Assembly: GCA_000004695.1 (NCBI GenBank)
Contig: CM000154.2
Span: 4,800,001 to 4,864,000 of the forward strand
Length of the DNA stretch: 64,000 nucleotides
Source of the DNA: Dictyostelium discoideum
Lineage: Eukaryota
Direction of reading: 5' to 3'
Shown here: positions 16,558 to 35,306 of the stretch, piece after piece
How the letters are laid out: each line of letters starts with the position of its first letter
How positions within the stretch are numbered: the first letter of the stretch is position 1
Translations under genes and position numbers: made by a program
Notes under the pieces: model-generated
The model's input: the letters and a program-made list of their open reading frames with translations, nothing else
What the model was told of the DNA's origin: nothing
Database searches by the model: none

Positions 16558-17206
16558 TTATTGCCCAAATAAAGATTGAAATAATTTTGGAAATAATGAT
16601 TTTTCATTAATTGATAATTGTGAAAACCAAATTTTCATTGAATTAATATCATTTTTATCAATTGGAAATTGTTGTAATGATAAAGCAGTATTCATTTTGA
16701 AATTGAATGAAAAATCAGTATTTTCAGTATCCAATAGAATATAATTTAACATATTATCCTTTAGGATTTGAATACCTTCTTTTTCAATTGAATCACTATA
16801 ACTATTTGAACACATTAAACCTATTGAATAGATTATTTGATTTTTTATAGTTTCATTTGTTAATACACCAATTAAAATCCATAATTTAGTAGCAATCAAT
16901 GTATTATGAGACCAAATCCAACCTAAATAAATTGATAATAATTCTAAACTTAATAATATTGTAAATATTTCTTGATATTCTTGTTTTTGTTCTTGTTGAT
17001 TATTATTACTATTATTTTCAACAATTTCAATTAATTCATCAAGTTTTAAAATTAATGCATTTGAATAATTCTCTAAATTAAATTCATTATTAATTGGTAA
17101 ATTTATACATTGAAAGAATTTTTTAAATTTCCTAGCCTATATATAAAAAATAAAAAATAAAAAATTAATTAGTACAAAGATGTTAAATATTTAAAAAATT
17201 TAAAAC

Positions 17207-17296
<90 letters not shown>

Positions 17297-20200
17297 TACA
17301 ATAATTGAATTATCTTTTAATGATAATAATTTAAAATTTAAAATTGCAATAAATGTTTTTATCAAATAATCACCATCTTTTGATTTAAAAAATAAAGGTA
17401 TAATTGATTGAACGATTAAGAATATATCGATTCTAATTGTTGAATATTCTTTTAATGATTCATAAAGTAATGTTTGAATCGGATAGAATTGTTGTAAAAT
17501 TTGACAAACTGAACATAAAACTTGACATAAAAATAATGATTGTGATTCTTTTATCATTGATAATGAATTTATTATTGAATTTGAAATTTTCGATTTCAAT
17601 AATATTGTACTTATCATTAATTTAAAGAAATTAGATTTAAAATTATCATTACTCTTTATAAATTTACAAATTAATGAAATCATTGAAAGAAAACTCTTAT
17701 GTAATGGTTGTGTTGTTGAGTTTGTTGTAGTTGTAGTACTAGTTGTTGTTGTAGTTGTTGATGTTGTAATAATTGAATGACTTAATAAAAGACGTTCAAC
17801 AATTGAATAAAATAATTTTTTCACCCAAATTGTTTCATTACCACCATTTTCTTTCCATGATTCTAATGATAATGATTTATATACAGGTTCAATTGAATTT
17901 GAATCAAATGATGATTGAATTTTTGATAATTGTTCATCAATAAATTTATATGTTAAATGTTGACTCTTATCAATTGGTTTTGATTTTGGTTTTGATTTTG
18001 GTTTTGGTTTTGGTAGTTGTGATTGTTTTTTTACTGTTGTTGTTTGTTGTGGTAGTTGTGGTGGTTGTGGTGGTTGTTTTTGTTGAGTAATAAGTGGTGG
18101 TAAAGAATCAAATAATTTATTTCTTTTTTCATTTGGTTGAGAAGTTTGTATTGCAGTACTACTCTTTTCAATTTCTGTATCTGATAATTTTCTTTTATTA
18201 TTTTTACTTGGTGATTGTATTGTTGATTTTGGTGGTGGTAAAGTTGTAGTGATGGTTGTAGGTGTAGGTGTGGGTATTGGTGTTGGTATTGGTGTTGGTA
18301 TTGGTGTTGGTATTGGTTTAGCAGCTTTTATCTTATTTTCTAAATTCTTTTCAGCCAATTTTTGCTGAAGAGGTTGTTTTTTATTCTTTTCTGGTGATGG
18401 ACTATTAATTGTTGTTTCAAATATACCAGGTGAAATTGGTGAAAATACTGAAAAATCTGATGAAACTGCATTCAACACTGAGTAAGGATCACGTGTTATT
18501 TGGTTATTTAATGATGATGATGATGATGATGATGATGACGATGGTGGTGTAAGTATAATTGGTGTTGTTTCAAAATTAGTTGGGGTTGTAACTATATCTG
18601 TTGCCTTGTTTGTTGTTGGCGTTGTTGTAGTTGAATTAGAAATTATTTCTGATGTTGGTGTTGCTGGAATTGATATTGATATTGGTATTGGTGTTGGTGT
18701 TGTTGTTGGATTTGGTGTTGTTGGTGTTGTTGTTGGTGTTGTTGGTGTTGTTGGTGTTGGATTTGAAATTGTTTCAGTTGATATTGGTGTAGGTGTTGAA
18801 GTGGTGGTAGCATTAGGTATTTTAGTAGTATTGTTTGTTGGTAAATTTAATGTTTTAGTAGTTTTAGAAATTGTTGATTTTTTAGGTATTGTTTTTTTAG
18901 CAGCACTAGGTTGAGGTTTAGTAATTGGTGGTGGTGGTGTAAATACCTCAAGTTCAATTGATTTAATTTCTTTAATTTCTTTATCAATTTCCTTATCAAT
19001 TTCCTTTTCAAATACTTGATCCTCTTTTAATTTTCTCTCATTTTCCAATTTCTCTTTTTCCTTTTGTTTTTCATTCTCTAATTGTTTTTGAATTTCAATA
19101 TCTCTTTCTTTTTCAATATCTCTCTCTTTTTCAATCAATCTTTCTTTTTCTTTTTGTTGTTCTAGCTTTTCTTTTTCCAATCTCTCTTTATCTAATTTTT
19201 CTTTTTCTAATCTTTCTTTTTGTTGTTCTTTTTCCAACTTTTCTTTTTCTTTTTGAAACCTTTCTCTCTCTAATCTTTCTTTTTCTAATCTTTCTTTTTC
19301 TAATCTTTCTTTCTCTAATCTTTCTTTTTGTAATCTTTCTTTTTCAAATCTTTCTTTTTCAATTCTTTCTTTTTCCTTTTGTAACCTTTCTCTCTCTAAC
19401 TTTTCTTTTTCTAACTTTTCTTTTTCTAACCTCTCTTTTTCTAATTTTTCTTTTTCCTTTTGTGATCTTTCTCTCTCTAACCTTTCTTTTTCTAATCTTT
19501 CTTTTTCTAATCTTTCTTTTTCTAATCTTTCTTTTTCTAATCTTTCTTTTTCTAATCTTTCTTTTTCTAATCTTTCTTTTTCTAGTCTTTCTTTTTCTAA
19601 TTTTTCTTTTTCAAATTGTTCTTGTTTTGTTTTTTCAATTATTTCCATTTGTTTTTGTTTGATAGTTAACATTTCATCAATTTCAAATAAATTACTACCT
19701 ATATCATCATCCTCACTACCAAATCCTGGAATATCGTTATCATCTGATTCTGTTTCTGTTTCTGGTTCAGACTCTGAATCCGAATCATCGCTTTCTTCAT
19801 CAGATTCTTTTTCACTTTTATCATTATCCTTCATTAAAATATCTTTTGTAGTATCATTTTCTAAAATTGATATTTGTTGTTGTGGTGATGTTATAGTTGT
19901 TGTTGCTGCTGTTATTGTTGGTGACGGTGGTAAAATTGTTTTTGTGGTTGTTGTTGTTATGGTTGGGGGTGAGGTGGTTTTAAAAATTGGTGCATTTATA
20001 GTGGTGTTTTTCTTTTGTGGTTGTATTGTTTGAATAATTGGTGTTAGTGGTGATGTTGTTGTTGTTAAAATTGGTGGTGATGTTGTTTTTGTTGTTATAA
20101 TTGGTGGTGGTGGTGTTGTTGTTATTGTTGTTGTTGTTGTTGTTGTTTTTATAATTGGTGGTGGTGTTGTTTTTATAATTGGTGGTGGTAGTGATGGTGT

Positions 20201-21569
20201 TGTTGTTATAATTGGTGGTGGTGGTGATGTTGTTGTTATAGCTGGTGGTGATGTTGTTTTTGTTGTTGCTATAATTGGTGGTGGTAGTGATGGTGTTGTT
20301 GTTTTTATAGTTGGTGGCAGTGGTGATGTTGTTGTTGCTGCTATAATTGGCGGTGATGATGTTGTTGTTTTTGTGGTTGTTGTTGCTGCTGCTATAATTG
20401 GTGGTGTTGTTGTTGTTATAATTGGTGGTGTTGTTGTTGCTACTATAATTGGAGGTGATGTTGTTTTTGTTATAATTGGTGGTAATGTTGTTTTTGCTGC
20501 TATAATTGGTGGTGATGTTGTTTTTGTTGTTGCTGTTGTTGTTGCTGCTGCAATAGTTTCAAGTACTTTGGTTCCATCCTCCCAAAAATCTTCTTCATAT
20601 TCTTCATTAATTTTATTTACATTTTCATTTACATTTACATTTACATTTACATCTACATCTCTATTTTCAAACAAATCACTATTAATTTGCTCAAATTCTA
20701 TATCACCTTCCAATTCTTTTTCTTTTTCTCTTTCCCTTTTTAATTCTTTCTCTAATTCTTTTTCTTTTTCTAATTGTTTTTCTTTTTCTAATAACTGCTT
20801 TTGATTTTCTTCAAATTGAGAGATTGTCATATTATCATTATCATCATCGTAACTTAATCCAATATCATTATTATTATTATTATTATTATGTTCCTTATTA
20901 TTATTGATTTCATTATCTTCATTATTAATATCATTTTCTAAATCTCCATTATCATTAAATGATGGTATATTATTTAATTGATTAGCTAAATCATCATGAT
21001 CATCTTGTTCATTTACTTTTTTTCTACGTCTAGTTAATGTTTTTAATTGTGTTTCATTATTATTATTATTATCATCATTATTATCATTATTATTATTATT
21101 ATCATTATCATTATTTTTGTTATCATTAAATTTACCACAACCAGGACAAGAGAAAGAGAAAATCTTTTTTTTTAAACTTGTGTTATCTTTTTCTAATTTC
21201 TCAGATTTCTTTTTAAATTCTATATATTTTTTTTTATATTCGTCAAATAATTCCAATTTCTTATTGGCTTTATCCATATTTTCTAATAACATACTATAAC
21301 TTTCAACCTTTGCACGAATTTGAACGTTTAAAGAATTCATTGATATAACTTCAGCATCTTTTGATGCCAATTCTTTATTAATTCTTTCAATTGTTTCTTC
21401 TAATTTTGAAATCTTTGTTCTTAATGGTAAATGACTATTAATTTCAGTATCTAATTGAAACTTTAAATTTTTAGTTTCTTTTTGTTCATTTACATATAAT
21501 TTTTCAAAATGTTTTTCATTATTATTATTATTATTATTACTACTATTACAATTATTTTCAAAATGTTTT

Positions 21570-21631
<62 letters not shown>

Positions 21632-22036
21632 GTTATTATTATTGTTCCTATTATTATTAATAATTTGAATTTGATTATTTAATTTATTATTTAAATTTTC
21701 TATATTTATATTTTTTTGTTCCAATTGAAATTGTTGATTATTTAAAATTAATTTTAATTTATCATTCTCTTGTGTTATAAATTGGTTTTGTGTTTGAAGT
21801 TCTTTAAATCTTGAAACTAATGAACTAGTAGCTATAATTTTGGATTTCATTATCATTAAATTATTATTTACAATATCATTATTATTATTATTGGTGGTAT
21901 TGTTATTATTTACATTTTGGGTTGACATTGGTGTTGAGTTTATTTCAACAATTTTATTTTCATTATTTTTATTATTATTATTGTTATTATCATTATTATT
22001 GTTATTATCTGTATTTGTAAAATTATCCATTGTCAA
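16558..22036 (-). CDS. Very large (~1750 aa) low-complexity protein with ERLEK heptad repeats, Thr/Pro-rich TTSPPII repeats and a poly-Asn N-terminus; 2 exons (17300-22036, 16558-17136)
   Basis: Long ORF 17183-22036. Its last residues (IIIII..) are read-through of an (AAT)n-containing intron. The donor is att|gtaatt (17298-17299) and the acceptor is atatag| (17137-17138). The last exon continues in frame as [19 protein letters not shown].. and ends ..LFQSLFGQ* (this overlaps track ORF 16558-16899). The function is unknown. Confidence 0.75.
17201..17297. repeat. (AAT)n/(ATT)n microsatellite within the intron of gene 16558-22036
   Basis: Direct reading. Confidence 0.9.
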
Positions 22037-22799: not shown

Positions 22800-27065
<4,266 letters not shown>

Positions 27066-31989: not shown

Positions 31990-32721
31990 TTGAATTTGAT
32001 TTATAATTTTAACATAAATTTCAGTTGCTAATTAATTTACATGATTTGAATATATTGACAATCGTTATCTATATGTTTTTCGATATCTTCCCTTTTAATT
32101 TTCATTTGACAACCTTTTAACAATCAATTTCATATTTTGGGCATTCAGTAAGATGATTTTTTACTTGATTCTTTGTGATAGATTTCATACAAAATGAACA
32201 TACTTTCAATTTATAACCATTGATATTCATGTTCTTGTAATGATTTTAATCTAACAATTTTATCACACCCTTTATATGAACATGGCACAAGTTTAAATTT
32301 ACAATTTTGTATATGACTATCTAATAGATCTACAGTTTTAATATCTTTACAGCCATTAATTTGATCTTATACTAATTTTTTTTTTAGATTTTCATCAAAA
32401 ACAATTTCCACTTAAAGTTGTGTAAGTGTAAGAATAAATACAAAAACATTCTTCTTTACTAAAAAACTGTTCAATTACTAAACATCTTGATAAATCATTG
32501 ATTAAATTTACTTTAATTCTACAAATCATACATTCTTTTTTATTTTTTAATGATGTTTCCCAACATCCTTGACATGCGAAATGGCCAGATTTACATTGAT
32601 AAATTGATTTCTTGTAAATAAATTCACAACAAATTGGACATGAATATTTATTATTATTTTGTAATGATTCTTGATTTAATAAAAAATCATTGATTGTAAA
32701 TTTGATATCAATTATTGACAT
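31990..32721 (-). pseudogene. TRAF-like pseudogene (RING + zinc-finger region present, multiple frameshifts, no MATH domain)
   Basis: ORF 32395-32721 encodes [85 protein letters not shown].. and then breaks frame. Recognisable zinc-finger homology continues in other frames to ~31990 (for example ..[20 protein letters not shown]..) with stops. Confidence 0.65.
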
Positions 32722-33258: not shown

Positions 33259-33448
33259 ATGGGTAATTTATTATCTCATACTTATGGAGTCCCTTCAATA
33301 ATTTCAATAATAATTATAGTATCCTCATCAATTTTTTTAATAATTTTAAAAAAAGATAAACAAAAATATATAAATAATCAAATTAATAATCAAATTAATA
33401 ATCAAATTGTTCCTGAAATATCCAATAATAATAGTTATAATAATAGTG

Positions 33449-33543
<95 letters not shown>

Positions 33544-35306
33544 GATGATTCATCTGTTAATCTTGGCAATAATTTAAAAACTACAGATTATGATATTGTA
33601 ATTGATTTACAAAGTGTTGATACATTTGTAATTAAAGATGCTTGTTGGACAGTATATGTCAATAAAGATTTACTTAAAAATGTTAAAGAAGATTCACCAA
33701 ATCCACTAGACTGTCTTTTAGAAGGTTCAAATAAATTTAGAACTGCAACCATTATTGGTTATTTTAAAAGAGGTAAATATTAAATCAATCAATCAATCAA
33801 TTAATCAATCAATCTACATATTTATTAACATTTGTATATTAATTTTCATAATTTTTTTTAATAGGCAAAACCTTTACAGCAAATTTAATAAATAATATTA
33901 ATTTACCATCTGGTAGTAAAACTAAAACAAAAGGTTTATCAATTTATATTTCTCATACAAATGATACTTTATTTATTGATACTCAAGGTAGTAATACTCC
34001 TCTACCATTTTTTGTAGATGAAAATGAAAATGAAGAACTTAAAAAAGCTTATAATATCAATCAAGCTGATGGAAGTATTAAATTGAATAATCTTCATCTT
34101 GCACGTAAGAAAGCAACTGAATCATTCATTCAAGAGACTGCTATTAGTTTATCAAATGTTGTAATTTTCGTTGTTAATGAAATGACATGGCACGATCAAC
34201 AAAATATAATGGCCATTCAAAAGAAGATTAAAACTCAAAATCCAATTGAAAAACAAAAAATCAGAGAACTCTATGTGTTTCATAATTATATGAATATTTC
34301 AAATATGGTTGATCTAATGGCAATGATTAAAACCTATGTAACAACTCCATTCAAAGGTTATTTTCATACTGAATTCAGCCTTCATTCTGATAATGAATAT
34401 ATAATTTATTATACAGATGCCGAGAATTTTACAACTCATTTCTTTTTATGTAATCATGGTAGTGAGTTTGGCAAAAAGTGGAATGAATTAGTGGGTAAAT
34501 TTGTCAAGACTAAAATTAAAAATGTTACAAATCAAAACTATGCATTTGATACAATACTATTAGAAACTTTAAAAGAGAAAATGAAAACCAATATTAAAAA
34601 TCCAACAGATTTAAAAATTGTACCATATTATAATTCTCAAACTCAAGTTGTGGAAATTGAAAATAAATCATCGAGTACAAGATCAAACACATTTGTATAT
34701 AAGAGACAGACTGGTATACCATTAAAGGATCAAAAAACATTGGAAGATTTAGAAGAAATGTTCAATCAAGTTAAAGCACATACTATTGATATTAACCAAG
34801 TTCCAATGTATTCGATTGTACCTGCTATTAAAAATAATGAATATGAGCAATGGAAATATGCATTAAATAACAAGGATATCATTTTCATTGATAATCTATT
34901 GATTGTAACTGGAAGTTTCAATCCAACCTATGACAGTCTTGAATGTGAGAATCGTACATTAATATTCACATTTGATTTACCAGATATTCCAGAATCTCAT
35001 TTCTCTCATTCAATCTACTATGATCCAAGTGACAAAGTTAGATACTTAAAAGTCTCGGGTAATAGAAAATTAAGTTATAGAGCATTAACTGGTACACGTG
35101 GTGGTGAGAGTACAATTAATGAATATCCATCAGCTGGTGTTAAAATTGGTAATAGTTTAAATCTTAGAAAAGATGGAGAATTTGATCTGAGAATTCCAAT
35201 TGAAGCAAATTATAGTAAAAATTATTCAAATCATTTTGAAAATGGTGTTTTAACATTAACATTTAAAGAAGAAATTGAAGGTCTTCCAGATGAAAGTTGC
35301 AAATAA
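33259..35306 (+). CDS. GBP/atlastin-like dynamin-superfamily GTPase with an N-terminal transmembrane anchor; 2 exons (33259-33772, 33865-35306)
   Basis: N-terminal hydrophobic segment VPSIISIIIIVSSSIFLIIL, then a poly-Asn tract. The P-loop TIIGYFKRGKTFTANLIN (GxxxxGKT/S as in GBP VGLYRTGKSYLMNKL) is split by an intron (donor aaaagag|gtaaat 33773, acceptor aatag| 33864). The G3 motif LFIDTQGS resembles atlastin DTQG. The downstream ..VVIFVVNEMTWHDQQ.. region matches the GBP layout. Confidence 0.75.

Follow-up and report, generated by a model that had tools for sequence, protein, structure and literature searches.

The stretch of Dictyostelium discoideum DNA analyzed here (64,000 nucleotides of contig CM000154.2, positions 4,800,001 to 4,864,000, hereafter the window) carries on its forward strand a genuine two-exon gene, whose spliced open reading frame (ORF) runs uninterrupted from the ATG at 33259 and encodes a protein of 651 amino acids. 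From N- to C-terminus, this protein consists of a transmembrane (TM) signal-anchor, a variable Asn-rich linker, an enlarged P-loop nucleoside triphosphatase (NTPase) domain, a middle region and a C-terminal alpha-crystallin domain (ACD). An original prediction, made from the letters of this DNA, had described the product as a large GTPase of the guanylate-binding protein (GBP)/atlastin/Sey1 clade with an N-terminal anchor, and did not mention the ACD. The reading that we favor, with modest confidence, is that of a membrane-anchored GBP/SMG9-like NTPase-ACD protein, which would act as a nucleotide-gated, dimerizing switch at the cytosolic surface of a membrane; it combines sequence profiles, a predicted structure and analogy with characterized proteins. 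In our assessment, the protein represents a distinct, widespread and uncharacterized branch close to the G-folds of GBPs and SMG9, set apart by its new domain partner and by a base-recognition motif that is non-canonical.

The unnamed family and its domains

Queried by itself, the protein yields very little. Its Pfam matches (hmmscan, E ≤ 10) amount to noise on the TM and poly-Asn region only, without any G-domain, GBP (PF02263), PF02841 or HSP20 match, which means that the PF02263 search, named in the original prediction both as its check and as its possible refutation, came back empty for the protein itself. A single-sequence phmmer search of the PDB likewise gave nothing meaningful, and an endonuclease (1byr, E 0.33) was disregarded as a chance-level match.

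Searching with the family as a whole was far more productive. A word-indexed protein search retrieved seven relatives only, by single sequence or profile alike, and an exhaustive HMMER scan, with a profile of these relatives, over 1.84 billion cluster representatives (50% identity) recovered 1,522 representatives at E ≤ 1e-3. The 854 of them at E ≤ 1e-10 indicate that the family match is not due to chance, and full-length matches to relatives range from E 1e-118 to 1e-60. Named members include the dictyostelids D. firmibasis, Acytostelium and Synstelium, as well as Ploeotia (a euglenid), Lithocolla (a nucleariid), Gymnochlora (a chlorarachniophyte, i.e., rhizarian), Furgasonia (a ciliate) and one MMETSP transcriptome, and are annotated only as “hypothetical”, “G domain-containing” or “SHSP domain-containing”. 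As judged from these sequences, the protein belongs to a large, unnamed and eukaryote-wide family that is mostly protist (amoebozoans, euglenids, ciliates, rhizarians and nucleariids).

Members share a signature that extends across the whole NTPase domain: a P-loop G-x-[FY]-[ND]-[KR]-G-K-[TS]-F-x-L-N, the switches T-K-G-L-S and D-[TS]-A-G-x-x-[ST]-P, a middle part with K-K-x-T-E-x-F-[LI]-Q, V-V-N-E-L-T-x-x-[DE]-Q and [VI]-[VI]-H-N, and H-x-x-L-x(4)-S-x-x-G-x(3)-N in the G5 area. The invariant positions are all intact in the window protein (the Gly, Gly, Lys and Thr of the P-loop, T193, D210/G213, V274-V275, Q283, H311-N312, H363 and N378), which thus combines these positions with a C-terminal ACD, as in our definition of the “G-ACD” family. 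The DTQG switch of the original prediction is among the motifs present (residues 210-213).

Two paralogues of D. cf. discoideum (P0003 and P0004) lie on the same 2.9-Mb contig; P0004 is 431 aa long, has no TM anchor and, in its annotated sequence, no P-loop (...KFSTVKLTINLINN...), and is either a decaying duplicate or the product of a splice-prediction error at the conserved P-loop intron. In D. firmibasis, three proteins with consecutive numbers (P0012, P0157 and P0013, i.e., RB653_001336, 001335 and 001334) form a second dictyostelid subfamily, with ~33-34% identity to the window protein, which suggests a local tandem expansion of the family; one of the three has an N-terminal TM helix and the UniProt name “SHSP domain-containing protein”.

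The closest relatives of the NTPase domain depend on how they are sought. Against the PDB, a narrow family profile matched GBP2 (8e-5) and GBP5 (2e-4), and a profile of 88 sequences matched GBP5 at 7.6e-12, GBP2 at 2.2e-11 and GBP1 at 1.2e-10, with the next GTPases four orders weaker (Arl6 2.3e-7, Der 3.8e-7, Sey1 2.3e-5). SMG9 was not among the best 60 (those down to E ~5e-4) of the 191 PDB sequences matched by the family profile at E ≤ 1. Aligned with hhalign to a set of twelve GBPs, the family gave 98.0% probability (E 2.8e-13) over 195 columns; these GBPs were retrieved from the database with a human GBP1 query that, over its full length, is 100% identical to the GBP1 entered there as P0164 (“Chain A”). 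Within this alignment, the last helix of the conserved extension that precedes the P-loop (residues 111-166) corresponds to the helix before beta1 in GBPs, and it is there that the GBP2 and GBP5 alignments begin. Pfam searches with 80 relatives point the same way, if less sharply, with MMR_HSR1 matched by 68, PF02263 by 48 (E ≤ 0.01, best 1.6e-8, hence weak) and Dynamin_N by 18. A confident AlphaFold2 (AF2) model built from a 97-sequence alignment (pLDDT 87.8, pTM 0.84) has SMG9 as its top structural match, near GBP1/2, RNF112 and the atlastins; Foldseek was consistent with these neighbors, and placed GIMAPs near the top as well. The nearest relatives of the domain, if distant ones, are thus the immune GBPs by sequence profile, and SMG9, GBPs, RNF112 and atlastins by predicted fold.

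The base-recognition site sets the family apart from GBPs. Neither RD nor [NT]KxD occurs anywhere in the window protein (motif scan), and across the family any [NT]KxD is found in 7 of 136 members, with two hydrophobic residues followed by His-Asn in 132. In the AF2 model His311-Asn312 ends beta5 (trimmed residues 211-217), and by fold order this would be the topological G4 position, occupied by NKxD in G domains and by RD in GBPs. We infer the equivalence from strand order because hhalign never paired His-Asn with the GBP RD.

The C-terminal ~120 residues are predicted, by profile and model, to be an alpha-crystallin domain. Matched to solved small heat-shock proteins (small HSPs), the family profile reaches E 8.6e-6 when narrow and 1e-16 when broad. 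Pfam HSP20 is matched by 19 of 80 relatives, and a narrow hidden Markov model (HMM) built from dictyostelids finds the domain in 44 of the 130 complete relatives. Between the NTPase domain and the ACD, the middle region (~396-521) has no Pfam or PDB match and resembles no recognizable family.

At the other end of the protein, VPSIISIIIIVSSSIFLIIL (residues 11-30) is the sole segment above our criterion for hydrophobic segments (19-residue Kyte-Doolittle mean ≥ 1.6), with a maximum of 2.63, which agrees with the earlier claim that the only hydrophobic anchor is N-terminal. A cleavable signal peptide was rejected on established signal-peptide rules: the 20-residue hydrophobic core is directly followed by KKDKQK, without a small-residue cleavage region. 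Because this basic cluster comes after the helix and no basic residue precedes it, the positive-inside rule predicts an N-out/C-in topology with the NTPase domain and the ACD in the cytosol. A cytosolic location agrees with those relatives whose N-terminus, instead of forming a TM helix, looks like a myristoylation site. The N-terminus is complete in 130 relatives, of which 21 begin with a TM-like segment (in many cases with a Lys/Arg cluster behind it), 25 start with MG and 14 with a myristoylation-like MGxxx[STAGCN], and none has a C-terminal TM-like segment; by the same Kyte-Doolittle measure the window protein has none either. N-terminal anchoring hence appears to be a trait of the unnamed family: the topology, called unusual in the original prediction, is so relative to GBPs and atlastins, and is normal, indeed recurrent, within the family to which the protein belongs.

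Proposed nucleotide switch and competing readings

The NTPase domain most likely binds and hydrolyzes a nucleoside triphosphate, because the Lys and Thr of the P-loop, the Thr of switch I and the DxxG are intact. As in GBPs and atlastins, the triphosphate state would probably lead to dimerization through the nucleotide-binding face. The ACDs of small HSPs dimerize and bind clients, and by analogy the ACD would provide a second self-association site or a client-binding site. Through nucleotide cycling, a protein layer would be built up and taken apart on the cytosolic side of the membrane, or non-native or foreign targets would be captured there. The preferred nucleotide may be other than GTP, and GTP specificity should not be assumed, because the Asp with which G4 reads guanine has given way to the invariant His-Asn, and because the best structural match, SMG9, binds ATP with both G4 and G5 rearranged (PMC7334022).

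A number of observations weigh against this reading. The domain assignments come wholly from family profiles and predicted structure, the protein alone matching no Pfam G-domain or HSP20 entry. Homology with GBPs can be trusted only over the stretch that runs from the pre-beta1 helix through alpha3; past alpha3 the alignment is unreliable, and the local, global and alternative modes of hhalign all failed to pair His-Asn with the GBP RD. GBPs and atlastins rely on a catalytic P-loop arginine (G-x-x-R-x-G-K-S; R48 in hGBP1, R77 in atlastin-1), and this position is not Arg here: position 4 of the P-loop is Lys in the window protein and, across the family, Asn in 52, Asp in 25 and Lys in 7 of 92 sequences, the basic residue of the P-loop being found at position 5 instead, so that the mechanism of hydrolysis may differ. 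The I-x-I/V motif, which builds large small-HSP oligomers, is absent from the tail that follows the ACD (FKEEIEGLPDESCK), and small-HSP-like assemblies are therefore not implied. Finally, the topology is predicted from charge rules only, and the MGNLLS start resembles a myristoylation site; a myristoylated Gly2 would be at odds with the N-out orientation.

Beyond the single protein, we tentatively consider a broader possibility, in which the family is an ancient and unrecognized branch of GBP/atlastin/SMG9-like proteins spread across eukaryotic supergroups. Its nucleotide switch, whose base-reading motif (the invariant His-Asn) would not be one for guanine, and which would be held at membranes by an N-terminal anchor (TM helix or myristate), would drive the ACD as a nucleotide-gated membrane chaperone or as a cell-autonomous defense module. 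If true, this would be a module without a characterized counterpart.

It seems doubtful that the protein is a bona fide GBP/atlastin/Sey1 member, i.e., a large GTPase specific for guanine that would tether, fuse or attack membranes as those proteins do, with the sole difference of an N-terminal anchor. GBPs, atlastins and Sey1 are indeed among the best profile and fold matches, the P-loop context (G-x-F-x-R/K-G-K-T-F-x-x-N), TKG and DTQG resemble those of GBPs and atlastins, and a predicted membrane anchor is reminiscent of atlastin, Sey1 and RNF112. The clade assignment of the original prediction thus stands at the superfamily level, on profiles, hhalign and fold, and falls at the level of family membership: PF02263 and PF02841 are unmatched, the Arg-finger position of the P-loop is Lys, Asn or Asp, RD and NKxD give way to the invariant His-Asn, and there is neither a helical stalk or bundle match (GBP_C, PF02841) nor a C-terminal TM hairpin, the C-terminus being an ACD beta-sandwich and the last residues of the protein (...DESCK) not forming a CaaX box. 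Furthermore, the top structural match (SMG9) is not a membrane remodeler, and the one D. discoideum GBP homologue of a published review, gnbp (DDB_G0281639), differs in architecture (PMC8565484).

An SMG9-like static scaffold is also improbable. Such a protein would hold a constitutive structural nucleotide, possibly ATP, and serve as a membrane adaptor that recruits partners through its ACD without a GTPase cycle. The ATP-binding SMG9, with its rearranged base-recognition motifs (PMC7334022), offers a precedent, and G4 and G5 are non-canonical in the family studied here too. Set against this, SMG9 falls outside the best 60 PDB profile matches, in which GBPs reach ~1e-11, and the gamma-phosphate-sensing Thr of switch I and the Gly of DxxG are near-invariant among more than 90 diverse relatives, which argues for a working triphosphate/diphosphate switch.

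We give still less weight to a membrane-resident holdase of the small-HSP type, whose ACD would be the effector, acting under stress on unfolded membrane-proximal proteins, and whose NTPase domain would tune its availability. Detection of the ACD in 44 of 130 complete relatives, despite the narrowness of the HMM, and the UniProt name of one paralogue (“SHSP domain-containing protein”) fit this idea. However, the tail as read from the translation has no I-x-I/V, and many relatives have no detectable ACD while their NTPase motifs are invariant, which makes the NTPase domain look like the core of the family.

Gene model, features and surroundings

The coordinates of the gene and of the features discussed above are given in Table 1. 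Exon 1 encodes the N-terminal anchor, the Asn-rich linker, the extension that precedes the P-loop and the first five residues of the P-loop itself; the remainder of the NTPase domain lies in exon 2, as do the middle region and the ACD.

Table 1. Features of the gene, with positions in the window; the protein domains are predicted
Feature	Positions	Strand	Evidence and remarks
Exon 1	33259..33772	+	Codons 1-171 and first base of Gly172; splice and translation, orthologue proteins with the same contiguous sequence
TM signal-anchor VPSIISIIIIVSSSIFLIIL, residues 11-30 (predicted)	33289..33348	+	Kyte-Doolittle; equivalents in D. purpureum and other family members
Lys-rich juxtamembrane flank KKDKQK, residues 31-36	33349..33366	+	Sequence; similar flank after the TM segment in P0005, P0013 and P0021
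(AAT)n microsatellite, most of the poly-Asn linker	33424..33542	+	Tandem Repeats Finder (TRF): period 3, 39.7 copies
Conserved N-terminal extension of the NTPase domain, YDIVIDL...W...PLDCLLEG, residues 111-166	33589..33756	+	YD.V..I...GW consensus in 88-97 relatives
P-loop/G1 GYFKRGKT, residues 167-174	33757..33872 (intron included)	+	G167 92/92, G172 93/93, K173 93/93, T/S174 93/93
Intron	33773..33864	+	92 nt, GT..AG, phase 1; interrupts the Gly172 codon
Exon 2	33865..35306	+	Rest of Gly172 to Lys651, then TAA
Switch I/G2 TKGLS, residues 193-197	33927..33941	+	T193 94/95, G195 93/95, S197 92/95; aligns with GBP TKGIW
G3/Walker B DTQG, residues 210-213	33978..33989	+	D210 94/95, G213 94/95; aligns with GBP DTEG
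Signature KKATESFIQE...VVNEMTWHDQ, alpha2 and beta4, residues 253-283	34107..34199	+	Aligns with GBP NDSWIFALAVLLSSTFVYNSMGTINQQ
His311-Asn312, end of beta5	34281..34286	+	AF2; H 96/97, N 97/97 in the family
Beta6 and following loop HFFLCNHGSEFGKKWN, residues 363-378, G5 position	34437..34484	+	AF2; near-invariant His363, Ser371, Gly374 and Asn378
Middle region, ~residues 396-521	34536..34913	+	Helices, short strands and one disordered loop (AF2 secondary structure, pLDDT)
Alpha-crystallin (small-HSP, HSP20-like) domain, ~residues 522-641 (predicted)	34914..35273	+	SFNPTYD...FDLPDI...SGNRKL...RKDGEFDLRIPI...ENGVLTLTFKEE

That an intron splits the P-loop, as originally predicted, is borne out: the junction falls within the Gly172 codon (GYFKR|GKT, G167-YFKR-G172-K-T174), and unspliced read-through meets a stop after GKY. 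The junction has independent support, since GYFKRGKTF is contiguous in three independently annotated Dictyostelium orthologues, in which the same exons are joined, and since a 75-nt intron sits at the identical codon position and phase in the D. purpureum orthologue. The intron of the window gene also contains an (AATC)8 tetranucleotide repeat (33783-33814). Together with the exon-1 motif YD-x-V-x-x-I...GW, which continues into the G domain without a break in relatives known from transcriptomes (e.g., P0007), the conserved intron and the orthologue annotations strongly support that exon 1 is part of this gene, as the original prediction had assumed. A gene-model artefact, in which exon 1 (TM segment and poly-Asn) came from another transcript and the protein started inside exon 2, would fit P0009, a 407-aa ORF fragment from a public assembly with its start 3' of the intron, and the abundance of low-complexity sequence in exon 1, and yet it is effectively excluded by these same observations and by the loss of half of the P-loop and of the conserved YDIVIDL...W extension that removing exon 1 would entail.

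An Asn run precedes the G domain, as had been noted; its uninterrupted part is 31 residues long (residues 65-95, nt 33451-33543) rather than ~35. In P0001 and P0008, which come from two further D. discoideum isolates, it is much shorter, with few Asn, and because its length varies in this way between isolates we reject the idea of a functional spacer. The tract is a polymorphic, strain-variable microsatellite typical of the D. discoideum genome, and not a conserved or designed spacer. Slightly upstream, a 12-nt repeat, AATAATCAAATT, occurs three times at 33373-33408 and encodes NNQI three times.

The window as a whole is very AT-rich (GC 0.15-0.36), and the neighbors of the gene are ordinary and unrelated eukaryotic genes (Abhydrolase_3, a Sina/TRAF-type RING, Got1/Sft2, Rpb6, xanthine dehydrogenase, kinesin, F-box/ankyrin), with no second copy of the gene within the 64 kb. 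The divergent neighbor on the minus strand (32395-32721, ~540 bp upstream) starts with a Sina/TRAF-type RING finger (PF21362, E 1.8e-7), and its ORF is probably the first exon only of a larger gene; in the intergenic region that the two genes share there are extended runs of poly(T), poly(A) and (TA)n. The D. purpureum orthologue (locus L001, GL871402.1, 3001-4869) is instead flanked by Exo_endo_phos, saposin, SAC3_GANP and tubulin genes. Since these differ from RING, Sft2 and Rpb6, local synteny is not conserved, even though the intron position is. Farther away, a 1,617-codon ORF on the minus strand (17183-22036) has no Pfam match at E ≤ 0.001, lies where the AT skew of the window is most extreme (-0.47, -0.37) and probably encodes a low-complexity-rich Dictyostelium protein. 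GC content peaks in the window (0.355) at a xanthine dehydrogenase/aldehyde oxidase-type gene on the plus strand (23679-27065; MoCoBD_1/2, FAD_binding_5, CO_deh_flav_C).

Significance and comparison with known systems

Within the library that we could search, the literature contains no description of a GBP/SMG9-like NTPase joined to an alpha-crystallin domain, nor of this gene. In a review of the Dictyostelium dynamin superfamily, the only GBP homologue is Gnbp (DDB_G0281639), to which a signal peptide, a G domain and a C-terminal TM segment are ascribed, and there is one Sey1/atlastin (PMC8565484). Neither the window gene nor its family is listed there, which leaves a gap in the Dictyostelium inventory. 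Among our protein-search matches, the D. discoideum entries are only “hypothetical protein” records from recent assemblies (KAM9957273, KAM9970879), with no UniProt or RefSeq entry for this species, which may account for the absence of the gene from the published inventories of GTPases.

A fusion of NTPase and ACD links two systems that have been studied in depth, nucleotide-driven self-assembly on membranes and ATP-independent holdase chaperones, and it does so in a phylogenetically broad family of more than 1,500 clusters (50% identity) in which a TM helix and a myristoylation-like N-terminus have repeatedly been swapped. The invariant His-Asn at the site of guanine specificity makes these proteins a natural test case for a change of nucleotide preference in G-folds. 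As Dictyostelium is genetically tractable and serves as an infection model, function is directly testable.

Among characterized systems, GBP1, GBP2 and GBP5 share with the window protein an enlarged G domain with a helix before beta1, the P-loop context G-L-[FY]-x-x-G-K-[ST]-[FY]-L-x-N, the T-K-G of switch I, D-T-x-G and the alpha2/beta4 pattern. They differ in that the position of R48 (hGBP1) is Lys, Asn or Asp in the family described here, in that their (T/A)(L/V)RD at G4, which confers guanine specificity, is replaced by His-Asn, and in that a C-terminal helical domain, with or without a CaaX box, takes the place of the predicted N-terminal TM segment and C-terminal ACD. Gnbp is likewise a Dictyostelium protein with a GBP-like G domain and a predicted permanent insertion into membranes (PMC8565484), from which the window protein is distinguished by its N-terminal TM anchor, its divergent G domain and its ACD.

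Atlastins, Sey1/RHD3 and RNF112 also keep a GBP-like G domain permanently on the membrane, and atlastin has the same DTQG at G3. Their anchor, however, is made of C-terminal TM segments that follow a helical bundle, whereas the only TM segment of the window protein is N-terminal; the RD motif and a helical-bundle match are absent from the latter, and the ACD is unique to its family. SMG9 is similar in G-fold structure and in having non-canonical base-recognition motifs, but it is a soluble subunit of a kinase complex (SMG1-SMG8-SMG9) that pairs with SMG8 and has neither a TM helix nor an ACD.

Small HSPs (PF00011), for their part, resemble only the C-terminal end of the protein, through the ACD beta-sandwich and its signature (DLPG-like, G-x-R, R-x-x-G-x-F and NGVL-x-[IL]). 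They are soluble oligomers with subunits of 12-43 kDa, whereas the window protein is a predicted membrane protein of 651 aa and several domains, whose ACD is appended to an NTPase and, in this protein taken alone, falls below the Pfam HSP20 threshold.

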